DNA of 64,000 nt from Bacteroidales bacterium (GTDB lineage Bacteria > Bacteroidota > Bacteroidia > Bacteroidales > JAADJA01): the NCBI GenBank assembly GCA_021740645.1, contig JAIOZL010000022.1, forward strand, positions 2,806-66,805, written 5' to 3'. The notes below the pieces were generated by a model. That model searched no databases. It was not told the origin of the DNA and saw nothing but the letters and a program-made list of their open reading frames with translations. Below, piece after piece: positions 2,257 through 64,000 of this stretch. A program made the translations under genes and the position numbers. Numbering within the stretch: the first letter of the stretch is position 1; each line of letters starts with the position of its first letter.

Positions 2257-3407
2257 TGCAAAGTGCAACCATAATAGAACTTAGTCAGTCGGCCATTGAA
2301 TATAACTTGAAATTTATTCAAGTGCAGATGGGAGATAAAATAATCATATCTTCTGTTGTAAAAGGAAATGCATATGGTCATGGTATTGAGGAAATTGTAC
2401 CAATTATTGAGGAATGTGGGGGAAATCATTTTTCAGTTTTTAGTGCAGATGAAGCTTACCGGGTATTCCATGCAACACGAGGCAAGAATACTATTTTAAT
2501 TTTAGGCTTCATTCCTGATAATGGATTTGAATGGGTGATCAAAAATGATATTGAATTTTATATTTCGAATCTATATAGAGCCCGGAAAGTCTTGGAAGAG
2601 GCAAAAAAAACAGGCAAAAAGGCAATAGTACACCTCGACATTGAAACGGGGATGAACAGAACAGGTTTAAATGATAAGGACCTAATGGAAGTTGTAAGCC
2701 TAATTCAAAATAATACCGATCAATTTTATGTTAGAGGAGTATGTACTCACTTTGCCGGAGCAGAAAGCATCTCTAATTTTGTAAGGCTTAAAAATCAAGA
2801 TCAACGCTTTAGGGAAATTGTAAGTTTATTGAAGGGGAAAGGTATTGTTCCTGATATCCTTCATGCTGCTTGTTCTGCCTCAGCAATGGTATATCCTGAA
2901 ACCAGGTATGATATGGTTAGAATTGGAATTATGCAATATGGGTTTTGGCCAAGTAAGGAAACATTTATTCACTATATACATAATAAAACCGACAAATCTG
3001 ATCCCTTAAGAAGAGCTTTACGCTGGAAAAGTAAAGTAATGGAAGTAAAAAGTGTCTGTCAGGGAGAGTTCATAGGTTACGGAAACTATTACCAGGCCTA
3101 TAATAATATTAAAATAGCCATTATCCCGGTTGGGTATTATAATGGATACAGTCGGTCGCTCAGTAACCAGGGTAAAGTTCTCATTAATAACCAGCGCGTT
3201 AGCATAATTGGTATGGTGAACATGAATATGATTATAGCAAATATTAGTAAATTACCAAATGTAAAGCCAGGAGATGAAGTTGTAATGATAGGTAAACAAG
3301 GAAAATATCAACTATCAGTGGCCTCATTCAGTGAATTAAGTAATCAGGTTAACTATGAACTTTTAACCCGCTTACCACAAGATATCAATAGAATTAAAAC
3401 AAAATAA
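2256..3407 (+). CDS. alr: Alanine racemase
   Basis: 383 aa. PLP-lysine motif VVKGNAYGHG. Start overlaps the upstream stop (TAATG). Confidence 0.85.
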   Translation: MQSATIIELSQSAIEYNLKFIQVQMGDKIIISSVVKGNAYGHGIEEIVPIIEECGGNHFSVFSADEAYRVFHATRGKNTILILGFIPDNGFEWVIKNDIEFYISNLYRARKVLEEAKKTGKKAIVHLDIETGMNRTGLNDKDLMEVVSLIQNNTDQFYVRGVCTHFAGAESISNFVRLKNQDQRFREIVSLLKGKGIVPDILHAACSASAMVYPETRYDMVRIGIMQYGFWPSKETFIHYIHNKTDKSDPLRRALRWKSKVMEVKSVCQGEFIGYGNYYQAYNNIKIAIIPVGYYNGYSRSLSNQGKVLINNQRVSIIGMVNMNMIIANISKLPNVKPGDEVVMIGKQGKYQLSVASFSELSNQVNYELLTRLPQDINRIKTK

Positions 3408-14034: not shown

Positions 14035-14949
14035 TCAAATTATCTGAACGCCCTGGTTTGACGTAAATGTTTGGATGGTGGTTTTATAACTTGGATTAGA
14101 AGAAAATGCCGTGTCCATATAATCGGCTATTTCTTTTTGTCTTTCCTCAGGACAAAAGGCAATTACGGATGAACCTCCCCCACTGATCGTACATCCATAG
14201 GCTCCCATTTCAATCACTTTATCTTTTATCCCCCAGTACCCTGGTATAGCTGCCCCTCGGACAGGTTCATGGATATAATCCACACTCAGTGCTTTTCCAA
14301 ATTCAACAAGATCAGCAGTATGGATTGCATGAATAATCCTGGAACATCTTGCCATTTGAGCTTTCAACTTCTCCTGCCCTATTTCATAAGTTATAAAACC
14401 TCTTGTAGTTCGCTGGCTTTTAGTAATGGCAGATATAACTACAGGAATGCGGGGTAGTTCAAGTTTCAAAACATCTATAGGGTTATAGTCTTTAACAAGG
14501 ACGAACCCCCCCAATAGTGCGGCTGCAACATTATCAGCGTGAGGAGAACCCCCAGAAGCAACTTCTCCTCTTCGTGCAAAATCAATCATTTCATTATTCG
14601 ACATTTTCAGGTCAAACAAATAGTTTAGCCCAAAAACAGTAGCGGCTGCACTGGCTCCGGTCGTTCCCATCCCTCCACCTGAACTGATCTTTTTTCCTAT
14701 AGTTATGAGTAATCCGGTATCAATTTTTTTTGCATTCAAAAGCTCTGAAGCTGCCAGACCTGCTGTATTATCTTTTGGGTCAGTGGGTATATTCTGAATA
14801 TTGTTGATAACCTCAATTTTGATTCCTTTTGAATCTGTTAGGGATAATTGAATTTCATCGTAAGGATATTCAAGTGCAAGGGCAAAAATATCATAGCCCG
14901 GCCCGACATTAGCACTGGTAGCCGGCCCCTTTACCGTTACCGACCTCAT
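14035..14949 (-). CDS. thrB: GHMP kinase, homoserine kinase-like
   Basis: N-terminal PATSANVGPGYDIFALAL and GHMP P-loop SSGGGMGTTGASAAA. TGA stop. 4-nt overlap with the upstream gene. Confidence 0.7.
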   Translation of the reverse strand: MRSVTVKGPATSANVGPGYDIFALALEYPYDEIQLSLTDSKGIKIEVINNIQNIPTDPKDNTAGLAASELLNAKKIDTGLLITIGKKISSGGGMGTTGASAAATVFGLNYLFDLKMSNNEMIDFARRGEVASGGSPHADNVAAALLGGFVLVKDYNPIDVLKLELPRIPVVISAITKSQRTTRGFITYEIGQEKLKAQMARCSRIIHAIHTADLVEFGKALSVDYIHEPVRGAAIPGYWGIKDKVIEMGAYGCTISGGGSSVIAFCPEERQKEIADYMDTAFSSNPSYKTTIQTFTSNQGVQII

Positions 14950-33336: not shown

Positions 33337-34527
33337 ATGAACTTACATGAATACCAGGGAAAAGCCTTGCTTAAAAAGTTTGGTGTGGCCGTGCCGGAAG
33401 GTGTTATCGCATTTTCACCTGATGAAGCATTCGAAGCTGCTAAAAAAATCAATAAGTTAACAGGTTCTGAAATTTGGGCAGTGAAAGCTCAGATTCATGC
33501 TGGAGGACGAGGTAAAGGTGGTGGAATTAAAATTGCAAAATCAATTGACGAAGTGATGACCTTTTCAGATGCAATACTGCATATGAACCTGGTTACGCCC
33601 CAAACAAGCAGTGAAGGAAAACCTGTAAGGAAAGTTCTCATTGAGCAAAACATCTATTATGATGGCCCCGCAGAAACACTGGAGTATTATATGTCGATTT
33701 TGCTGAACAGGGCCAGCGGCAGAAATATGATCATGTATTCTCCCCGAGGAGGTATGGATATAGAAAAAGTCGCCGAAGAAACTCCTGAAGAAATCTTTAC
33801 CGAGGAAATAGATCCTAAAGTGGGCCTACTGGGATTTCAGGCCAGGAGAATAGCCTTTAACTTTGGCCTTAGTGGGAAAGCTTTTACAGAAATGGTAAAA
33901 TTCGTCACTTCTTTGTATAAGGCGTATATAGGAGTGGATGCTACCCTTTTTGAAATTAATCCGGTGATTAAAGCTGCCGATGACAAAGTCTTTGCAGCTG
34001 ATGCTAAAGTTGTAATTGATAACAATGCGCTTTTCAGGCATCCTGACATCCTTGAACTTAGAGATTTTACAGAAGAAGATCCAATTGAAGTGGAAGCAAG
34101 CCGATATAACCTGAGTTACGTTAAACTAACTGGGAATGTGGGTTGTATGGTGAATGGTGCAGGATTAGCAATGGCCACTATGGACATTATCAAACAATCA
34201 GGTGGGGCCCCTGCTAATTTTCTTGATGTAGGGGGTGCTGCTGATTCTAAACGGGTAGAAGAGGCTTTCAGAATTATTTTAAAAGATCCTAATGTTAGTG
34301 CTATCCTTGTTAACATTTTTGGTGGCATCGTCCGATGTGATAGTGTAGCTCAGGGTGTAGTGGATGCCTATAAAAGAATAGGAGAAATAAAAATTCCTAT
34401 CATCGTCCGCTTACAAGGAACCAATGCGAAAGAAGGAAAACAGATAATTGATGAATCCGGATTAGAAGTGCATTCCGCTATTGCCCTTGCAGAAGCCGCT
34501 GAAAAAGTTAAAGAGGTACTCTCTTAA
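33337..34527 (+). CDS. sucC: Succinyl-CoA synthetase (ADP-forming) beta subunit
   Basis: MNLHEYQGKALLKKFGV start, ATP-grasp domain, GCMVNGAGLAMATMD. No sucD adjacent. Confidence 0.92.
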   Translation: MNLHEYQGKALLKKFGVAVPEGVIAFSPDEAFEAAKKINKLTGSEIWAVKAQIHAGGRGKGGGIKIAKSIDEVMTFSDAILHMNLVTPQTSSEGKPVRKVLIEQNIYYDGPAETLEYYMSILLNRASGRNMIMYSPRGGMDIEKVAEETPEEIFTEEIDPKVGLLGFQARRIAFNFGLSGKAFTEMVKFVTSLYKAYIGVDATLFEINPVIKAADDKVFAADAKVVIDNNALFRHPDILELRDFTEEDPIEVEASRYNLSYVKLTGNVGCMVNGAGLAMATMDIIKQSGGAPANFLDVGGAADSKRVEEAFRIILKDPNVSAILVNIFGGIVRCDSVAQGVVDAYKRIGEIKIPIIVRLQGTNAKEGKQIIDESGLEVHSAIALAEAAEKVKEVLS

Positions 34528-35513: not shown

Positions 35514-37448
35514 CTAGTCTGAAACCAATTTATTATTTATCAATCGGTGGTAAAATTGCTGAATAACCGCTTTTGTCATTATTTCATATTCTTGCACAAG
35601 TATTGGTTCCTTTTCCAGTAAATTGTTTTTCAGAATGCTGTCCATTTTATAATTGTACAAAGCCAGACTCTTTTCCCCATCAAATTGATACACATAGTCT
35701 TCTTTAATGGTTTGAAAAATACCGGCATGGTATGAGATCGCATACCTTTTACGATTGGTATCATAAATACTATTACCAAAAGATATCGTTTTCCCCTGAT
35801 ATCCGATATAATCAAGTATACTTGGGAATATATCAGTTTGTTGTACTACCCTGTTACCAATGCCAATATGATCCATATCCTTTTTATAAAATGCTATAGG
35901 AATAGAATATTTTCCGACGGCCCTCCGGTAAAATGGATGATACCCTCTGAATGTATGGTCTGCTGTGATAATAAATAAAGTATTATCAAACCAGGTTTGC
36001 TTTGATGCGTTTGCAAAAAACCGCTTCAATGCATAATCAGTATATCCAATGCTTTCGCTTATCTCTGATGGACCTTTGGCGAATTTATCTTTGTATTGCT
36101 CAGGAATGGTAAAGGGATGATGAGATGACAGGGTATAAAGTGTAGCAAAAAAAGGCTTTTTGATTTGATTTAGTTTCTGAACCGCATATTGGAGGAATGG
36201 CTCATCGAAAATTCCCCAATTGCCGTCGAAATCATTATCATTTCCATATTCTTCTCTGCCAAAATAATCATCAAAACCTGCAATTTTACAATAGGAGTCA
36301 AAACCCATGGTTCCATTTGTACCCCCGTGAAAAAAAGCAGAATAATATCCCAATCCTTTTAAAACTTCAGGAATCGAATTTATCTTATTGGTGGCATACG
36401 GAGAGATAAGAAAGGGCCGATCCATCATAGAAGGTATCCCGGATATTGTAGCCGGGATTCCATCCATAGAGGTTACACCATTGGCAAAGCCCCGAAACAC
36501 CAAACTCTTTTTAAATAATGAATCCAGAAAAGGAGTAAATCCTATATAATTACCATTCTCAAGAGAAGAATTCAAGTAGCCAACATGTTCGGTGGTTAAG
36601 CTTTCCACAATGATTAACACAATATTTGACCGATTAATTGCATCATTCTCACGACTATAAATGAGGACAGGAGAATATACACTCTCTAAATCTTCCAGAC
36701 TTTTAAAATAGTTCTTTTCCTCAATTTCCGCCCTGTCCAAGCTTTTTAAAATGGTGAAAGGCGTATTCAGGATTATTGGAAAGAACTTGGGTTGGGTATA
36801 ATCACCTGCATTTATAAAATCAATGGGTTTTCGTTGAAATCCTCCCCTTATGGAAAGGACTATTAAAACCAAACCGACTATCAATTTTACAGCATCATTT
36901 CTATAGCTTGAAAGCAGGTAAGGTCTTTTGCTAACTGCAAGGGCATTAACTTTATTAACGGCAAAGATTAATAACAATATGGATAGAATCCAGGTACCAA
37001 AGGACACCCAATAATCGGCAATAAAATCAGGCAAAAGCGCATTTATTTCTGTTTTATTTTCCCGAATAAAATCAAATATTCCGAATGTCATCCTTTTCTG
37101 AGTAAACCGGATGTAGATCACGTCCACATAGTTTACCATCATCGCCAAGGAATTCAATCCAATAAACAAAAAATCATTTATCCGTCGATAAATCCTTTTA
37201 TGCTTGACAGGTAAGGGTAAAAAGCTAAGTACAATAAACGGGGCATTCACAATCATGAATGAAAATAAATCGAACTTGAAACCAGCAAATGTCAAATAAA
37301 AAAAATGGCCTGCACCAAGGTCTTCAAACATCGGCCTGTTGAAAAAGTAAATGGAGATCCTGGAAAATACAAACAAAATAAAGACTGCCAGTATCTTAAG
37401 CAGAACTGCTATACTAGGATTGATTTTTATCTTACTCGAGCAAGTCAT
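35514..37448 (-). CDS. LTA-synthase/phosphoglycerol-transferase-like sulfatase-superfamily membrane enzyme
   Basis: Five N-terminal TM segments plus an extracytoplasmic alkaline-phosphatase-superfamily domain (IVESLT, SSHHPF, ITADH). Confidence 0.75.
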   Translation of the reverse strand: MTCSSKIKINPSIAVLLKILAVFILFVFSRISIYFFNRPMFEDLGAGHFFYLTFAGFKFDLFSFMIVNAPFIVLSFLPLPVKHKRIYRRINDFLFIGLNSLAMMVNYVDVIYIRFTQKRMTFGIFDFIRENKTEINALLPDFIADYWVSFGTWILSILLLIFAVNKVNALAVSKRPYLLSSYRNDAVKLIVGLVLIVLSIRGGFQRKPIDFINAGDYTQPKFFPIILNTPFTILKSLDRAEIEEKNYFKSLEDLESVYSPVLIYSRENDAINRSNIVLIIVESLTTEHVGYLNSSLENGNYIGFTPFLDSLFKKSLVFRGFANGVTSMDGIPATISGIPSMMDRPFLISPYATNKINSIPEVLKGLGYYSAFFHGGTNGTMGFDSYCKIAGFDDYFGREEYGNDNDFDGNWGIFDEPFLQYAVQKLNQIKKPFFATLYTLSSHHPFTIPEQYKDKFAKGPSEISESIGYTDYALKRFFANASKQTWFDNTLFIITADHTFRGYHPFYRRAVGKYSIPIAFYKKDMDHIGIGNRVVQQTDIFPSILDYIGYQGKTISFGNSIYDTNRKRYAISYHAGIFQTIKEDYVYQFDGEKSLALYNYKMDSILKNNLLEKEPILVQEYEIMTKAVIQQFYHRLINNKLVSD

Positions 37449-37692: not shown

Positions 37693-38925
37693 ATGAGCAA
37701 TATAAATAAAGTAGTATCAGCCGGGAACAAAGGTGATGATATCCGTTCGGATTGTTACGTTTCACTGGAACTAAAAGACAGGGGTGGCCTTAACATCGAC
37801 ATCCAGAGTAAGGTCATGGTTATGTATGGCAATTCAATACGAAAGTTAGCTGAAGACATTTTAATGTTTTATGGATTAGAACATGCCCACCTGGCCATTA
37901 TCGATAGTGGTGCGCTACCATTTGTAATTTCTGCACGTATAGAAGCAGTTGTTAAACAATTGGTAAAAACAACAAAGGAGTACCTGTTGGAAATTTTACC
38001 TGAGAATCAAACTGAAACTACAAAAGATGTCTTCAGGTTCTCAAGGCTTTACCTGCCTGGAAATTCACCCAAACTCATGCTCAATGCAGGAATTCATGGC
38101 CCTAATGGCCTGATCCTTGACCTGGAGGATGCAGTAGCTCCCGATAAAAAATTTGAAGCCCGTTTTGTCGTCAGAAACGCGTTACGCCAACTTAATTTCT
38201 ATGGTGCAGAAAGAATGGTTAGGATTAATCAGGTTCCCGAAGGTTTAAATGACCTCGATTACCTCGTGCCCCATCATGTGAACCTGATTCTTGTGCCTAA
38301 ATGCGAAAGCAAGGAACAAATTTTACTGGTAAACAAAAGGATAGACGAAATAAAGAAAGAAAAGAATATCGCCTGCAATATTTGGTTGATGCCCATAATT
38401 GAAAGTGCATTGGGTGTAATCAAAGCCTATGAAATATCAAGTGCTGCTGATAATATTGTTTCCCTGGCTATTGGTCTGGAAGATTATACCGCAGACCTTG
38501 GAACACGCCGTAGCAATGAAGGAAATGAATCCTTCTTTGCAAGAAGTATGGTTGTAAATGCAGCAAAAGCAGCTAGAATACAACCCATCGATTCCGTTTT
38601 TAGTGATGTTTCTGATATGGAAGCCCTAAAACAAAATGTACAGGTTTCAAAAAGTTTAGGATTTGAAGGAATGGGCTGCATTCATCCACGCCAGATTAAA
38701 GTTATTCATGAGAATTTTGCTCCTGATAAAGCGGAAATTGAAAAGGCCACCAAAATTGTAAATGCTTTTATCCTGGCTAAAGAAAAAGGATTAGGTGTTG
38801 TATCCCTCGGCTCAAAAATGATTGATGCCCCGGTGGTCAAACGAGCTCAGAAAATTGTAGACCTGGCCATATCATTGGGTTTATTGGATAATAACTGGAG
38901 AGAAAATTTAGCTAATAATTCTTAG
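37693..38925 (+). CDS. citDE: Fused citrate lyase acyl-carrier (gamma, CitD) and citryl-CoA lyase (beta, CitE) subunits
   Basis: Residues 1 to about 95 resemble CitD (AG..SD.. then DSGALPFVISARIEAVV). The remainder is HpcH/CitE (RLYLPGNSPKLM, LILDLEDAV, MPIIES). Confidence 0.7.
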   Translation: MSNINKVVSAGNKGDDIRSDCYVSLELKDRGGLNIDIQSKVMVMYGNSIRKLAEDILMFYGLEHAHLAIIDSGALPFVISARIEAVVKQLVKTTKEYLLEILPENQTETTKDVFRFSRLYLPGNSPKLMLNAGIHGPNGLILDLEDAVAPDKKFEARFVVRNALRQLNFYGAERMVRINQVPEGLNDLDYLVPHHVNLILVPKCESKEQILLVNKRIDEIKKEKNIACNIWLMPIIESALGVIKAYEISSAADNIVSLAIGLEDYTADLGTRRSNEGNESFFARSMVVNAAKAARIQPIDSVFSDVSDMEALKQNVQVSKSLGFEGMGCIHPRQIKVIHENFAPDKAEIEKATKIVNAFILAKEKGLGVVSLGSKMIDAPVVKRAQKIVDLAISLGLLDNNWRENLANNS

Positions 38926-38981
38926 AACAGGTTTTGTCTTAATCCGGCATAACCTGATTCATCAATAAATACAGATGCAGA

Positions 38982-40538
38982 ATGAAAAAATACGATAAAG
39001 TAGTCAAAAACGCTGCAGGGCGCCTGGTCCCAACTATTATAAACGGCGAAGAACATATCCCCTATCAGGGTGTTGGAAAATACAAACCAACCGGCAGAAA
39101 GCATGCGCCGTCTATTTCGTCCTGTGCCGATTATCCGGCAGATGGAAATAAAACCCTTTCCAGTTTAAAAGAGGCCCTGATTAAGGCTGGCCTTAAAGAT
39201 GGAATGACGATTTCCTCCCATCATCATTTCAGAAATGGAGACCTTATTGCAAAACAGGTTTTTGACATTGCTCATGAAATGGGAGTAAAAGACCTGAGAT
39301 GGTACCCATCTGCTTCATTTCCGTGCCAGGCTGATTTGATTAAATATCTCGAAGATGGTACCATTAACCGTATAGAAGGAAGTATGAATGGCCCTCTCGG
39401 AAAATTTACGTCTGAAGGAAAAATGAAAGGCATGAGTATTTTAAGGTCACATGGGGGCCGCTACCAGGCCATTCAGGATGGAGAAGTACAGATTGATATT
39501 GCTATCATTGCTGCACCTACGGCTGATGCCTTTGGAAATGCCACCGGGGACAGGGGCCCCGCAGCTTGTGGTCTGCTTGGGTTTGCTTTGGGTGATTCGC
39601 AATATGCAGATAAAGTAATAGTAGTTACTGATAACCTCGTTCCATTCCCTTGTATACCATGGCAAATCCATGGGAATTATGTGGATTATGTGGTAGTCGT
39701 TGACAAAGTTGGCTTGCCGGAGCGAATTGTTTCCGGCACTACACAAATTACCAAAAGTCCCGACCGTTTGCTTATTGCTGAAATGACTGCGCAGTTCTGT
39801 GACGAAGCAGAAATCATAAAAGATGGATTTTCTTACCAGGCAGGTGCCGGAGGAACTGCGTTATCCATTGGTAATTACTTTAGGGATATTTTAAAAGACC
39901 GGGGATGGAAAGCTCGATTTATTCGTGCAGGGAGCAATAAATATCCTGTGCAAATGCTGGAGGAAGGCCTGGTGGATTATATTCTCGACGGGCAAACATT
40001 TGACCTGGAAGGGGTTCGTTCAATGCGGGAAAATGCCGGCCACGTAAATACCAGCCCGTTCACCAGTTACAACTATCATGGAAAAGGCAATTTTGCCTCG
40101 ATGGTGGATGTTGTTATTCTTGGAGCTACAGAGGTAGATGTGGATTTCAACGCCAATGTAGTTACTCATTCTGATGGATATTTACTCCATGGTATAGGAG
40201 GTTGGCAAAATTGTTTATTCGCCAAAACAACCATTATTCCCATCCCTCTTTTCCGCGACCGAATGCCTGTTATTTTGGATGAAGTAACCACACTATGCGG
40301 GCCCGGAGAATTGATTGACGTAATTGTTACGGAAAGAGGAATTGCAATTAATCCCTTGAGGAAAGACCTTTTAGAAAAAATGAAAAATTCCTCATTACCA
40401 ATTAAAACAATACACGAGCTTAAAGGGGAAGCGGAACGTATTTGTGGAAAACCCGAAAAACCAGCCTTAAGTGATGAATTTGTTTCAGTAATCAAATGGG
40501 TAGATGGGACTGTGATCGATGCCGTTAGAAAGGTATAA
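38982..40538 (+). CDS. citF: Citrate lyase alpha subunit (citrate CoA-transferase)
   Basis: 518 aa. CoA-transferase fold with CitF-like length and blocks (SSHHHFRNGD, GGRYQAI). Immediately downstream of citDE. Confidence 0.8.
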   Translation: MKKYDKVVKNAAGRLVPTIINGEEHIPYQGVGKYKPTGRKHAPSISSCADYPADGNKTLSSLKEALIKAGLKDGMTISSHHHFRNGDLIAKQVFDIAHEMGVKDLRWYPSASFPCQADLIKYLEDGTINRIEGSMNGPLGKFTSEGKMKGMSILRSHGGRYQAIQDGEVQIDIAIIAAPTADAFGNATGDRGPAACGLLGFALGDSQYADKVIVVTDNLVPFPCIPWQIHGNYVDYVVVVDKVGLPERIVSGTTQITKSPDRLLIAEMTAQFCDEAEIIKDGFSYQAGAGGTALSIGNYFRDILKDRGWKARFIRAGSNKYPVQMLEEGLVDYILDGQTFDLEGVRSMRENAGHVNTSPFTSYNYHGKGNFASMVDVVILGATEVDVDFNANVVTHSDGYLLHGIGGWQNCLFAKTTIIPIPLFRDRMPVILDEVTTLCGPGELIDVIVTERGIAINPLRKDLLEKMKNSSLPIKTIHELKGEAERICGKPEKPALSDEFVSVIKWVDGTVIDAVRKV

Positions 40539-47590: not shown

Positions 47591-48376
47591 TTATCGAACA
47601 ACTGAAAACTTTACCATCTGGGTAGTTGAGTTTGATCTGATCCTTAAAAAATATACCCCATTACTTAACGACCTGATATCTGCACTTAATTCAACATGTC
47701 CGTTGGGTTGATAAGGTGCAGCCACGTCCAATACAGTTTGCCCGGTAAAATCCAGTACCTCAGCTGTAAGGGATGAGGCTTGAGCCAATTCAAAAGAAAA
47801 GGATAAAATATTATGTGCGGGATTGGGATACAAATTAATATGCAAATCATTTTCATGCTGATCGTTCATCCCGGTGTTGATGGTATTACATTCCAGTAAT
47901 GCTGTATTTATGGCATCTTCTATCCCGTTTGCAGTATAATTTTTATTGTAGTACACTTTATGTTCGGAACAACCTACCACTACAATCTTGGGCATGCCGG
48001 GAGTACCGTAATCATTCATACTGATCTCCGCATTTGAAAAATAAGCATCTGCCTCACCCATACTATTGGCATTTCCCCAGGCCGCTATAGTAGGACAAGA
48101 AGTGTTAGCATAGTCATCAACCAAATAATATAAAACCTGTCCGGGATGTGTGCCGGAAAAACTTTTGGCTGCCGTGTAGGCTTGCAACGACGGGCCAATA
48201 CAGGCTCCGCATGGCATTACCCAGGCAATAACAATCACCTTGCCTTCGTCCAGTTCTGAAAAAAGGTTGTGCAATTGTCCATTACAATCATTCACTGTGA
48301 AATCAGTGGCCGTAGTTTGCGCCAGTGTAGAAAAAGCATAGAAGAGGCCAATAGTAAAAAGTAGTGCTTGTTTCAT
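47591..48376 (-). CDS. Thioredoxin-fold CxxC protein with a T9SS C-terminal sorting domain
   Basis: Signal peptide. VIAWVMPCGACIGPS (CGAC). C-terminal LYPNPA...GVYFLRI sorting domain. Confidence 0.6.
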   Translation of the reverse strand: MKQALLFTIGLFYAFSTLAQTTATDFTVNDCNGQLHNLFSELDEGKVIVIAWVMPCGACIGPSLQAYTAAKSFSGTHPGQVLYYLVDDYANTSCPTIAAWGNANSMGEADAYFSNAEISMNDYGTPGMPKIVVVGCSEHKVYYNKNYTANGIEDAINTALLECNTINTGMNDQHENDLHINLYPNPAHNILSFSFELAQASSLTAEVLDFTGQTVLDVAAPYQPNGHVELSADIRSLSNGVYFLRIRSNSTTQMVKFSVVR

Positions 48377-59920: not shown

Positions 59921-59993
59921 GATTCCGTAGCTCAGCAGGTAGAGCATATGCCTTTTAAGCATAGGGTCCTGGGTTCGAGCCCCAGCGGGATCA
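59921..59993 (+). tRNA. tRNA-Lys (anticodon UUU)
   Basis: Cloverleaf by eye. Acceptor GATTCCG/CGGGATC with one G-U pair, D-loop AGCTCAGCAGGTAGAGC, anticodon stem TATGC/GCATA with loop CTTTTAA, and T-arm CTGGG-TTCGAGC-CCCAG. CCA is not encoded. Confidence 0.92.
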
Positions 59994-59997
59994 CACT

Positions 59998-60036: not shown

Positions 60037-60248
60037 AATATATCCAATTCCAAAAAGCATGTTTTAAAATTCGCTGAATTGTCTAATTCACGGTTAATGG
60101 AAAAATTTGAATTCTATTTCTTTATTCTTGTTTTCTTTAATTCCTTACGAATGATAAATGTCCACACCATATGTCATTCAAACTAAAATATTTATACTTT
60201 TGTGAATCATCAGGACATGATCAGGTAGTATATAACTTGCATTTATCA

Positions 60249-62960
60249 ATGAATTTCTCACCAGGGATTTTTTACAGGCTTAAAAAAAGCATAGTGTTTG
60301 TTTTACTTATTGGCATCTTTGCTTCGCTACCTGGGGATTGTTTTATCCAGCCTTCAAAAAATGCACGTTTGAATTGGGATAATTACCTTCTGTCGACCTG
60401 CAAAAAAATCCCAGTAAATGCTGATGGCCCTGATTTAGCTGCACTCCAGAATTACTTCATGACCATCGACCCGGAATTAAAAAGAGTTCCCACAGAAAGG
60501 TTATATAATGCATATATTAAAACTAAAGAATTACGCTCAGCAGTGGACTATAAAACCACGATGGGGCCGGGATGGACAGAAACCGGATCGGATATGGGTG
60601 GGAGAACACGTGCAATTGTCTGGGACCCCAACGACCCGGATGGAACAAAAGTATGGGCAGGAAGTGTCACAGGTGGATTATGGTTCAATAACGATATTTA
60701 CAACGACAGCTCTGATTGGCAACAAGTGAATGACTTTTGGCCGGCACTTTCAATTAGCACAATTGTTTCCGACCCCAACGATCCATTGACCATATATGTT
60801 GGAACCGGAGAATGTGAAACAGCGAGATTAATTTACCGTGAATCATCGGGAGTTGGTTATGGGATTTGGAAATCAACAGATGGAGGAACAAACTGGGAAA
60901 TCATTCCATCTACAGCTTCTTATAAATACATTTCTGACCTAAAAATAAGAGATGAAGACGGACTAAGTGTGGTTTATGCTGGTGTAGTCTCGGGGTATTA
61001 CCAGGGAGTGAATCATAACAGTAGTCCTTCCGAAGGTTTATACAGGTCAACCAATGGAGGATTAAGCTGGCAACAGGTGCTACCCTATATACAAGGAACA
61101 GAGTTAGCCTATGCGCCTGCTGATATTGAAATTGGCCCCACAGGAAGGATGTTTATCGGTACCATGAAAAACCTGAGTGGAGATGGCGGAGCTACTATTC
61201 TTTTTTCCGATCCTGGGACATTAGGAACCTGGATGATTTTTGATGATTATGAGGAAATTATTCAAAATAGCTTTACTTATAATGTCCCGGGCCGTGTAAT
61301 TCTGGCCTGTGCCCCCTCAGATCCAAATAGAATTTATGCCCTGATTGGAGCAGGATGGTTAAATTCTACAAATTTTAATTATGCAGTTGGCAAGTATATT
61401 CTGAGATCAAATGACGGCGGGCTGAGTTGGCAGGAGCGAAATCTTCCCGGCTGGGATCCTGAGTGGGCAAATATTTCATGGCATGCATTTACCGCTTCAG
61501 TTAACCCGGGCAACCCCAACGAAATATATGTCGGGGGAAAGGATGTTTGGAAGTCGACTAACTCAGGAAGCAACTGGTCAAAGGTTTCAGATTGGACCCT
61601 GATGTATTCGGGTGGAGGTGAAGATTATGTACATTGTGATCAGCATCAACAACTCTATAAGGAAGGCTCAAATATTGAAATGTTATTGATTTCAGATGGT
61701 GGAGTGTTTCACACTGGAAATGCCACATCGGGTAATCCTGTTTTTGAAGAAAAAAATAACAACTATTCTACTCTTCAGTTTTATACCTGTGATATCTATC
61801 CTGAGGCCGGGTCCAATTATTTTATTGGAGGTTTGCAGGATAATGGCACTTTGCTTTATTCGGGAGAACCCCTTAAAGTAAGTGATATGATTGATGTGGG
61901 AGATGGAGCTTACTGTTTCTTTGATGAAAATCAACCTCAAATTATGATCACTTCCACTTACTTTAATGTTTACACCATGTTTTATAGCTGGGACTATTTT
62001 GGAACAACAGGTATGGATGGGACAGGGATATTTATCAATCCGGCAGATTATGATAGTGAAAACAACATCCTTTTTGCCAATGCGGTAAAATTTAATGGTA
62101 CGTATCCAAATCAATTACTTCGTATAACAGGTATCCCATATAATCCTTACGAGCAATTAATCACGCTATCAACTGGTTTGAATACCTGGTTTACACATAT
62201 AAAAGTCACTCCTTTTGGGCCGGATGGGAGCACTACCATACTACTGGGATCGCAAAATGGCCGCTTGTTTAAAATTGACAATGCAGATAGTAATCCAGTG
62301 GTTAATGAGATTGGTTCCAATGATTTCCCTTCAGCCTACGTTTCCAGTGTGGACTATGGAGCTTCAGCGGATACGCTGTTAGTTACATTTTCAAACTATG
62401 GGGTCGCTTCGGTTTGGCAAACCTATGATGGGGGAAACAACTGGCAGAACATTTCAGGCAACCTACCCGATATGCCAATTCGCTGGGGTATTTATCATCC
62501 TCAATCGACCAAACAAATAATGCTGGCTACCGAAATTGGAATTTGGGAAACAGCTGATGCCAGTACCGGAGAAGTTATATGGGAACCAGACCCGGTTGTG
62601 CCAAACGTGAGAGTGGACATGTTACAGGTAAGAAAACCTGACAATACTGTATTAGCAGCTACCCATGGCCGGGGTCTTTTTTACTGTTTCTGGAATTTAA
62701 ATATCGCCAGTTCAATTAAAGAAAAAGATCAAATACAAATTGAATTCTTCCCCAACCCTGCTGAAGATTTTATTACCATTAGTTTTAATAAAGATCAATA
62801 CATGGATGTGGTTATTATTAGTCAAAGCGGGAAAACCTTGATAGAGAAAAGGATAATCAGTGAAGAAAAAATTGACCTGAAGGGACTGTCGCAAGGTGTT
62901 TATTTGGTTGCATTGACATCGGGTGATAAAAGCGTTGTAAGGAAAATTATCATAAAATAA
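60249..62960 (+). CDS. Secreted BNR/Asp-box repeat (sortilin/VPS10-like beta-propeller) protein with a T9SS C-terminal sorting domain
   Basis: Asp-box motifs STDGGTNW, STNGGLSW, SNDGGLSW, STNSGSNW, TYDGGNNW. C-terminal FFPNPAEDFITISF...GVYLVAL domain. ATG at 60249 precedes the hydrophobic signal segment. Confidence 0.75.
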   Translation: MNFSPGIFYRLKKSIVFVLLIGIFASLPGDCFIQPSKNARLNWDNYLLSTCKKIPVNADGPDLAALQNYFMTIDPELKRVPTERLYNAYIKTKELRSAVDYKTTMGPGWTETGSDMGGRTRAIVWDPNDPDGTKVWAGSVTGGLWFNNDIYNDSSDWQQVNDFWPALSISTIVSDPNDPLTIYVGTGECETARLIYRESSGVGYGIWKSTDGGTNWEIIPSTASYKYISDLKIRDEDGLSVVYAGVVSGYYQGVNHNSSPSEGLYRSTNGGLSWQQVLPYIQGTELAYAPADIEIGPTGRMFIGTMKNLSGDGGATILFSDPGTLGTWMIFDDYEEIIQNSFTYNVPGRVILACAPSDPNRIYALIGAGWLNSTNFNYAVGKYILRSNDGGLSWQERNLPGWDPEWANISWHAFTASVNPGNPNEIYVGGKDVWKSTNSGSNWSKVSDWTLMYSGGGEDYVHCDQHQQLYKEGSNIEMLLISDGGVFHTGNATSGNPVFEEKNNNYSTLQFYTCDIYPEAGSNYFIGGLQDNGTLLYSGEPLKVSDMIDVGDGAYCFFDENQPQIMITSTYFNVYTMFYSWDYFGTTGMDGTGIFINPADYDSENNILFANAVKFNGTYPNQLLRITGIPYNPYEQLITLSTGLNTWFTHIKVTPFGPDGSTTILLGSQNGRLFKIDNADSNPVVNEIGSNDFPSAYVSSVDYGASADTLLVTFSNYGVASVWQTYDGGNNWQNISGNLPDMPIRWGIYHPQSTKQIMLATEIGIWETADASTGEVIWEPDPVVPNVRVDMLQVRKPDNTVLAATHGRGLFYCFWNLNIASSIKEKDQIQIEFFPNPAEDFITISFNKDQYMDVVIISQSGKTLIEKRIISEEKIDLKGLSQGVYLVALTSGDKSVVRKIIIK

Positions 62961-63179: not shown

Positions 63180-64000
63180 ATGAAACAATTATTTACAATT
63201 TTTTTAATCTGCGCAATGGGAATCGGTATTCACGCCCAGCAGGTCAGCCGTGATATGGTTGTGATTGAAGGTGGAACGGGTTTTTGGTGAGGCTATTGCC
63301 CGGGCGCTGCACTTGGAGCAGTGGAACTCGTAGAAAATGGTCATAATGTGGCAGTAGTTGAAAACCACAATGGTGACTCTTTGGCAAATGTCTATTCTAA
63401 TGCACGAAATAGTTATTATAACATTTCAGGTTATCCAACTTATTTCTTTGATGGAATATTATCTGTTGTTGGGGGTAATGGATCTTCCAGTATGTATAGT
63501 GCATATGTACCAAAGGTTAATCAACGGAATGCTGTTATGTCAGATTTTACTATTGACATCGAATTTGAAGAAGCTGATGGAGATTACCACACAACTATTA
63601 CAGTAGAAAATGTTGGAGGAAATACTCTTACAGGCCTCGTTCTCCAGGTAGTTATAACTGAATCTAAACTTCCTATTGTTTGGGGATTGACACAAGAACA
63701 AGACTTTACAAACAGATTAATGGTGCCTAATCAGACCGGAACTCCACTAAGCTTCACCAGCGGATCAACGCAAATTGTGGAGCTGGATTTTTCTACTGCC
63801 AGTTTTTGGGATATCGACAATTGTGAAATCATTGCATTTGTGCAACACAATCCAACAAAAGAAATATTACAAGGATCGAAAAAATTTATGGCTATGGCAC
63901 TTTATTCTCTTGATGCCGAAGCTAAAGCTGTTAAATATCCTACCGGACTATTTTGCGGTTCTTCCGTTGAACCCGTTGTTCTAATCAAAAACATGGGTGC
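63180..64000 (+). CDS. Signal-peptide thioredoxin-fold protein (3' end outside the window) with an in-frame TGA at 63288-63290 in place of the first Cys of a WCxxCP motif; candidate selenoprotein or disrupted gene
   Basis: ATG at 63180 is followed by MKQLFTIFLICAMGIGIHAQQVSRDMVVIEGGTGFW, then TGA, then GYCPGAALGAVELVENGHNVAVVENHNGD... I read codon by codon and found no further stop through base 64000 (236 codons). It is absent from the ORF track because of the TGA and the lack of a terminal stop. Confidence 0.6.
63301..63330 (+). promoter_or_regulatory. Hairpin 11 nt downstream of the in-frame TGA (candidate bacterial SECIS)
   Basis: Lower stem 63301-63304 pairs with 63327-63330. A GAA bulge sits on the 3' side. 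Upper stem 63305-63310 pairs with 63318-63323. The loop is ACUUGGA. Total 10 bp including two G-U pairs. Confidence 0.3.

Follow-up and report, generated by a model that had tools for sequence, protein, structure and literature searches.

A TGA codon lying within the reading frame of a gene at the end of the analysed 64,000-nucleotide stretch of DNA (hereafter the window) is very probably a selenocysteine (Sec) codon, and comparison of sequences suggests that the gene would code for an exported, T9SS-associated redox selenoprotein. On the forward strand an ATG at 63180 opens MKQLFTIFLICAMGIGIHAQQVSRDMVVIEGGTGFW, which is followed by TGA at 63288-63290 and then by GYCPGAALGAVELVENGHNVAVVENHNGD, and past the TGA the same frame continues for 236 further codons without a stop up to the window edge. 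An earlier note on this DNA had described this ATG, the signal peptide, the TGA in place of the first Cys in a CxxC motif (here W-C-x-x-C-P) and the frame that stays open beyond it, and a reading of the sequence confirmed each of these. The ORF listing of the window gives only a 36-aa stub for the gene, because the remainder runs off the window end. Comparison of the window with contig JAIOZS010000002.1 (GCA_021740475.1) gave 0 mismatches over 3,830 bases compared, and in this contig the frame reaches a TAA 1,069 bases past the window, giving 629 codons with a single TGA. More disruptions downstream of the window, which the earlier note had named as evidence that would speak against Sec, were looked for, and no second stop or frameshift was found in the 629 codons. 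The gene has 1,890 bases (629 codons and the TAA) in one open frame, of which the 5′ 821 bases occupy 63180-64000 of the forward strand and the end corresponds to window-equivalent position 65069 (L003:14899). An identical protein, TGA included, is encoded in the independent Logan assembly of SRR12088349. GenBank and the gene callers give a 582-aa product that starts after the TGA and is annotated as a PKD protein.

The homologues of this protein have either Cys or TGA in the column of codon 37. This was seen in a protein search with Cys put at that codon, a check that the earlier note had proposed, which returned 79 homologues, about 60 of them reading GTGTW-C-xYCPGAA. The three closest full-length matches read FW-W-xYCP and five others start at MAVIENHNGD, directly after the motif. 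The DNA of the contig of orthologue P0001 reads GGTGFW-TGA-SYCPGAALGA and that of P0004 reads GGTGFW-TGA-GYCPGAALGA, with the TGA at the same codon; the W in the three matches is given by a code-4 gene call and the short proteins by truncated calls. Across 65 loci from GTDB species-representative genomes, the TGA is present in the two closest, L077 (CAYWXI01, 80% identity) and L078 (JAGVPB01, 73%), both of which are Bacteroidales MAGs, and the rest have Cys and do not exceed 54% identity (Bacteroidales, Prolixibacteraceae, Draconibacterium, Ignavibacteria, Cloacimonadota and others). A search of JGI metagenomes with a degenerate DNA pattern that holds TGA constant in the motif, for which by our own estimate about 1 chance match is expected, gave 73 matches on 72 stretches, 71 of which are homologous N-termini with a signal peptide and xTGxW-TGA-xxCPxAA. 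TGA in this motif is far more frequent than chance. The window's own 'GFW-U-xYCPGAA' clade has 22 distinct nucleotide sequences, all with the TGA, and the proteins are 65-80% identical. The 14 complete orthologues run from Met through the single TGA and 245-890 codons onward to a proper stop (284-930 residues in total). In every non-TGA homologue (63 or more) column 37 is Cys, and Trp is never found there. In a NJ tree built from 120 domain sequences, Sec and Cys seem to have switched at least 4 times, but the tree is sampling-biased, carries no support values and is not relied on here.

Before the TGA, codons vary synonymously while the protein sequence they encode is conserved, from which we infer that this stretch is translated. 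All orthologues keep the protein sequence of these 36 codons, which lie in frame with the downstream ORF and run directly into it. On scanning the window and the orthologue flanks, no other TGA-interrupted redox ORF was found, bar one tandem paralogue in L066. A recent TGY-to-TGA lesion or a base-call error had been put forward in the earlier note as an alternative, and a change from TGT or TGC to TGA does need only one base; one orthologue (L002) also lies on a contig with many fragmented ORFs. But the same TGA is present in two independent assemblies, 22 orthologue sequences and 71 metagenome relatives, the 629 codons are otherwise undisrupted and there is constraint at the RNA level downstream. 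Since the TGA is shared by orthologues and metagenome relatives whose ORFs are otherwise intact, a lesion, pseudogene or base-call error is rejected and we give it next to no probability.

The UGA codon 37 would place Sec at the N-terminal (attacking) residue of a U-G-Y-C redox motif, where TGA is found in 22 of 22 distinct orthologue sequences and Cys in at least 63 homologues, and which aligns with Cys48 of HBP35 (see below). The resolving Cys of this UxxC is Cys40 (63297-63299, forward strand), which with P41 forms an invariant column in 48-50 homologues. The tryptic peptide across Sec37 would be DMVVIEGGTGFW[U]GYCPGAALGAVELVENGHNVAVVENHNGDSLANVYSNAR. Alternation of TGA and Cys at redox sites is a recognised Sec signature. 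Elsewhere in the window TGA acts as a normal stop. The window has 47 ORFs that are 150 aa or longer; their stop is TAA in 28, TAG in 16 and TGA in 3. The three TGA-ended genes are a DapA-like gene (292 aa), a GHMP kinase or ThrB-like gene (304 aa) and a histidine kinase; none is unusual in length or domain content, and an ATGA stop/start overlap occurs in one of them, at 14946-14949. No other ORF requiring TGA read-through turned up when the window was scanned. An alternative genetic code in which TGA means Trp or Gly would agree with the low usage of TGA as a stop, but the three genes that end normally at TGA, the ATGA overlap, the lack of any other window ORF in need of read-through and a homologue column that is Cys, not Trp or Gly, make it extremely improbable. 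This agrees with the earlier note, which had taken TGA as a true stop elsewhere and an alternative code as unlikely.

A SECIS-like hairpin is predicted at 63305-63324 on the forward strand from RNAalifold, pair counts and frozen synonymous sites. Counting the U of the UGA as nt 1, its stem pairs nt 18-23 with nt 31-37 and encloses a 7-nt loop A-NNN-GG-A (63311-63317), in which G28 and G29 scarcely vary, if at all. The window's own sequence allows the hairpin to be extended to 63301-63330 (-10.8 kcal/mol), and a competing longer register at 63289-63329 is the single-sequence MFE (-17.4 kcal/mol). RNA folding after the UGA had been suggested in the earlier note as a check, and it answered only in part, as the single-sequence fold of 63285-63350 is no more stable than shuffles (z = -0.2) and the hairpin was found by comparison. 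The z value being uninformative alone, we relied on comparative analysis. RNAalifold predicts the hairpin from an alignment of 42 Sec sequences that belong to several sub-clades. In a pair-count test 96% of cells pair, against 14-55% in controls in which the 3′ partners were slid by 1-3 columns. Pair 21-33 (63308 with 63320) links two wobble bases, that of the Ala codon +6 and that of codon +10, and is U-A in 28 sequences and A-U in 10, a swap that, as read from the alignment, is a synonymous-synonymous compensatory change. This pair is Watson-Crick in 42 of 50 Sec sequences versus 22 of 59 Cys sequences (Fisher p = 6e-7, which overstates independence as the sequences are related). Local folding of nt 13-48 at equal GC gave -11.1 kcal/mol for Sec versus -9.0 kcal/mol for Cys sequences (p = 3e-6, the sequences again being phylogenetically related). 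Ala and Gly codons fix 3 of the 4 upper-stem pairs, so that the covariation comes chiefly from this one wobble-wobble pair and from G-C/G-U alternations.

The synonymous sites under the hairpin are also constrained. In the 22-sequence clade the codons +6, +7 and +9 to +12 after the TGA have a synonymous entropy of 0-0.4, with frozen codons GCT (21 of 22), GCA (22 of 22) and GGA (22 of 22); the entropy is 1.6-1.8 at four-fold sites a few codons off and 1.6-1.9 at the same codons in 63 Cys homologues. At this offset other Sec sub-clades form hairpins of their own, for example CGCAGC-AGUU-GCUGCG in one clade and, in another, CGUCUGC-GGC-GCAGGCG versus CGUUCGC-GGC-GCGAGCG, which differ by two compensatory pairs. 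Rfam has no family for the recoding region in either a gathering or a permissive scan. The apical loop, about 20 nt after the UGA, fits the known spacing of bacterial SECIS elements. A conserved guanosine in the apical loop is a published criterion for a bacterial SECIS, and the loop guanosines here fit it. The comparative evidence supports a hairpin with covariation and suppressed synonymous sites, missing from the Cys homologues, as expected for a bacterial SECIS.

The domains encoded on the two sides of the TGA belong together. At the N-terminus is a predicted signal peptide MKQLFTIFLICAMGIGIHAQ followed by Q (63180-63242, forward strand), with an n-h-c pattern ending AQ-Q that is kept in the orthologues and in the Cys homologues. 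An AlphaFold2 model of orthologue P0001 (71% identical) has a pLDDT >90 over residues 1-240, in which the signal peptide region forms an N-terminal helix (residues 2-18), followed by a thioredoxin-like beta-alpha-beta-alpha-beta-beta-alpha fold and then a beta-sandwich, with position 37 directly before the helix 40-52. The thioredoxin-like domain (residues ~22-120, 63243-63539, forward strand) is placed by this model and by its Foldseek match to HBP35 5Y1A, and the Omp28-type beta-sandwich domain (residues ~121-236, 63540-63887, forward strand) by Pfam PF11551 and by Foldseek to 2R2C. Foldseek with the P0001 model ranked HBP35 5Y1A first (E = 2.1e-12, probability 1.0) and the Omp28 domain 2R2C second (TMt 0.70). 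The Pfam match to Omp28 PF11551 covers residues 76-233 and is marginally above the GA of 34.9, with 35.5 bits for the full length and 38.1 for the window part. Pfam also finds PKD at residues 467-543. A T9SS sorting domain at residues 559-625 (PF18962 Por_Secre_tail 45.9 bits, GA 27; TIGR04183 43.4 bits, cutoff 23) is encoded outside the window and was seen in the contig, and this C-terminal domain bears out the guess of the earlier note that the protein is possibly T9SS-associated. Therefore, with the signal peptide upstream and the sorting domain downstream of the TGA, only the read-through product makes biological sense. If the TGA were a true stop, a 36-residue peptide would be made and the 582-codon ORF would be translated apart from it, from an internal GTG as in GenBank. 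Gene callers do give exactly this split of 36 aa and 582 codons, but the downstream product would then carry a T9SS sorting domain without having a signal peptide, and the first beta-strand would be missing from it along with half of the redox motif. Also, the internal start is not conserved, the calls in orthologues beginning at differing places, and the upstream 36 codons are protein-conserved, in frame and contiguous in all orthologues. We consider a true stop very unlikely.

Among sequence relatives, only HBP35 (35-kDa hemin-binding protein; PDB 5Y1A) of Porphyromonas gingivalis has a solved structure. The HBP35 motif VVLEVFTAEWCGYCPG aligns with VVIEGGTGFW-U-GYCPG of the window protein and Sec37 falls in the Cys48 column, and both proteins have a signal peptide, a Trx-like domain, a beta-sandwich and a T9SS C-terminal domain. 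The W-C/U-x-Y-C-P-G motif is at the N-terminus of helix 1 in the P0001 model, the fold of which is similar to 5Y1A, and the HBP35-like pairing of an N-terminal signal peptide with a C-terminal T9SS sorting domain is present. The identity is only ~17%, and HBP35 differs in having Cys, not Sec, and in being 344 aa long, with neither PKD nor additional middle domains. In HBP35, hemin binding has been mapped outside the Trx part, and it is not to be assumed for the window protein. HBP35 carries out DTT-dependent reduction of insulin disulfides faster than E. coli thioredoxin, the C48S/C51S protein being inactive (PMC2907840), and it reaches the cell surface via Por/T9SS through its C-terminal domain (PMC3120885).

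Residues 76-233 share with Omp28 lipoproteins the match to PF11551 and the structural match to 2R2C. The window protein nevertheless scores 30-33 bits against the NF033782 cutoff of 150, its signal is of the signal peptidase I type (AQ-Q) without a lipobox, and its Trx-like UxxC domain lies outside the Pfam Omp28 model. The DsbA-like, DsbG-like and thiol:disulfide interchange selenoproteins resemble it in being exported, with UxxC in a thioredoxin fold and a Cys-to-Sec replacement at the attacking residue. These are periplasmic and mostly from Deltaproteobacteria. The window protein differs from them in its domain context and its T9SS sorting signal, which implies cell-surface or extracellular display. 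All three groups are listed as exported Sec thiol-disulfide oxidoreductases in PMC13188914.

The best NCBIfam match of the protein is NF045500 'Omp28-related selenoprotein' (E = 4e-17), and the protein combines a UxxC-bearing Trx-like fold with an Omp28-related domain. However, the scores of 62.8 bits (full length) and 66.5 bits (window part) are far below the curated cutoff of 200, as are those of 13 Sec sub-clade representatives (30-85 bits) and of the Cys homologues (53-86 bits). Among the Sec sub-clades caught by the TGA-fixed DNA pattern none reaches this cutoff, and the curated family was not recovered. As the gene is below the NF045500 cutoff and missed by the annotation model, its GenBank call is truncated. 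GOS_C was predicted from Global Ocean Sampling data, with 74 TGA-containing sequences and 312 Cys homologues (Zhang & Gladyshev 2008, PMC2398784), and Table 1 of PMC13188914 links GOS_C with NF045500. GOS_C and the window protein are both purely computational predictions, and in both a Trx-like fold carries a UxxC with a single Sec as its first residue, Cys homologues are numerous and a SECIS-like hairpin comes straight after the UGA. GOS_C comes from marine surface metagenomes, whereas the window clade comes from Bacteroidales MAGs and has proteins of 627-930 aa with PKD and T9SS sorting domains, against 377 positions in the NF045500 model. Judged by HMM score only, from which the relationship is known, the window gene is a sister clade of the NF045500 family. 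Omp28-related UxxC selenoproteins are thus already known (GOS_C, 2008) and the window protein adds a new sub-clade. The earlier note had held that an exported Sec protein would be unusual for the phylum; the kind has a precedent in GOS_C = NF045500, predicted in 2008 and curated by NCBI, although the window protein falls below the cutoff of that family. In the literature searched we found no paper pairing 'Omp28' with 'selenoprotein', and neither Bacteroidota nor T9SS comes up in this connection in the recent selenoprotein surveys queried.

Genes for Sec machinery were searched for in ~80 kb of the source contig (the window with ~8 kb to its left and ~9 kb to its right), and no selA, selB, selD or tRNA-Sec was found there; the Pfam content of the same ~80 kb includes no AIRS, SelA or SelB-wing domains. 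ARAGORN found no tRNA-Sec in the window and 80 related loci, and tblastn with E. coli SelD and SelA queries (approximate sequences) gave no match in 1.7 Mb of related loci. These negatives weigh little, since Sec genes may lie far from the genes that depend on them and only local flanks were covered. A 2006 survey found no Sec-decoding Bacteroidetes. A tRNA-Lys(UUU) is found close to the gene in L003, L031, L041, L060, L068 and L073; the one at 59921-59994 on the forward strand serves as a conserved synteny marker and stands outside the proposed mechanism. The missing Sec genes in ~80 kb of contig and in related loci would also suit a read-through of the UGA without Sec, by a near-cognate tRNA (Trp or Cys) or a suppressor, with the hairpin slowing the ribosome or release factor 2. 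To this reading, which in our estimate has a small chance of being right, may be added that few long ORFs stop at TGA (3 of 47) and that some gene callers already give Trp under code 4. Yet the column is Cys and never Trp in the non-TGA homologues, at the catalytic position of CxxC, and alternation of this kind at a redox site is the mark of Sec; a Cys codon would be a simpler route to Cys, and the related family NF045500 is curated as a selenoprotein. Sec recoding, which the earlier note had preferred, is supported by the TGA conserved in 22 sequences, Cys in distant homologues, an ORF kept on both sides and a hairpin with compensatory changes.

With Sec decoding, translation would start at ATG 63180 and give a 629-residue selenoprotein. 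The mRNA hairpin ~15-35 nt past the UGA at 63288-63290 would recruit SelB-Sec-tRNA(Sec), and Sec would be inserted with no termination. The predicted product has a signal peptide, a Trx-like domain with U-G-Y-C-P, an Omp28-type beta-sandwich, beta-rich domains including PKD, and a T9SS sorting domain. By analogy with HBP35, it may be exported via the Sec translocon, cross the outer membrane by the T9SS and be displayed at the surface after removal of the sorting domain. There the Sec37 selenol and the Cys40 thiol could act as a thiol/selenol-disulfide oxidoreductase.

The GenBank call of 582 aa is without the signal peptide and the active site, and the read-through model corrects this annotation. 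Metagenome gene callers truncate the orthologues or give Trp under code 4, which leads to false 'FWW' sequences in protein databases. NF045500 misses the window clade and at least 12 other Sec-bearing sub-clades, and a broader model would rescue many genes. The gene ties the predicted GOS_C superfamily to the characterised HBP35 and so gives it a testable function and location. To our knowledge, no experimentally characterised bacterial selenoprotein is known outside the outer membrane. We consider it fairly likely, on the sequence evidence above, that the protein is a T9SS-secreted surface selenoenzyme in Bacteroidales and one of at least 12 Sec-bearing HBP35/Omp28-like sub-clades, with T9SS tails or other C-terminal modules, all below the curated model and hence truncated in public annotation. 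The finding implies that uncultured Bacteroidales decode Sec and that anaerobes carry an exposed selenol active site on their surface. If true, this superfamily would be among the more widespread uncharacterised selenoprotein groups of anoxic environments, and would point to extracellular selenol chemistry.

In the metagenome loci L005-L076, the Sec-bearing Omp28/HBP35-like proteins fall into a dozen or more distinct sub-clades, with motifs such as TW-U-xxCPGAAM, TW-U-PYCPYAAV, TW-U-PYCPGAAR and DW-U-xYCP[FS]AA[RQ]. All of these sub-clades score only 30-85 bits against NF045500, the NCBIfam model for Omp28-related selenoproteins, for which the curated cutoff is 200 bits. Several of them have no T9SS tail and carry C-terminal GDxNxDG repeats instead (loci L028, L010, L009 and L013), which we take to be dockerin-like in appearance. 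More than one TGA-type copy may also be present at a single locus. Two such copies each were found in L009 and L067, and in L066 a second Sec-type paralogue (position 3368, forward strand) lies in tandem 3′ of the first Sec gene at position 382. The motif of this second copy is a variant, GTAFG-TGA-GVCPGAALGAVE, after which the frame stays open for 796 codons.

The Sec codon was seen to be rendered as Trp ('GFWWSYCP') in three ENA metagenome gene calls (P0001, P0002 and P0007), apparently because genetic code 4 had been adopted by the gene caller on short contigs. As a result of these calls, false Trp-containing sequences enter the protein database. The orthologue on another ENA contig (contig_6402, locus L002) reads through the TGA and ends after 284 residues. 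Since this contig is full of short, broken-up PKD and GEVED ORFs, the fragmentation suggests indel errors of a long-read assembly rather than biology. Stop codon analysis of the 47 ORFs with a length of 150 aa or more in the window (1-64000; 37% GC) showed TGA to be a rare stop, present in 3 cases, the remaining being TAA (28) and TAG (16).

Among other genes in and around the window, a Hox-type bidirectional [NiFe] hydrogenase cluster is found on its left side, roughly 4-8 kb before position 1 (L142:1-4493, Logan contig SRR12088350_38067). It comprises a NuoF-like subunit, a 2Fe-2S/4Fe-4S subunit, the small subunit and HoxH with PF00374 (NiFeSe_Hases), and no in-frame TGA was seen in this cluster. 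A sulfatase is encoded on the reverse strand (35514-37448), for which the ORF of 644 aa and the called product of 542 aa (L144:12178-13806) differ in start site. The citrate lyase genes (37693-40538; a CitE/ACP-like fusion and CitF) and the adjoining succinyl-CoA-synthetase-like ATP-grasp gene (33337-34527) represent ordinary metabolism and are context only.

Nearer to the Sec gene, a tRNA-Lys(UUU) gene is present at 59921-59994. Six orthologous loci (the window, L031, L041, L060, L068 and L073) have this tRNA gene near the Sec gene, which indicates that synteny is conserved. Directly upstream of the Sec gene, a 929-aa Sortilin/BNR-like protein (60171-62960) carries a Por_Secre_tail, as does a 261-aa protein at 47591-48376, and both are predicted T9SS cargo. 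These two further cargo genes imply that a type IX secretion system is present in the organism.
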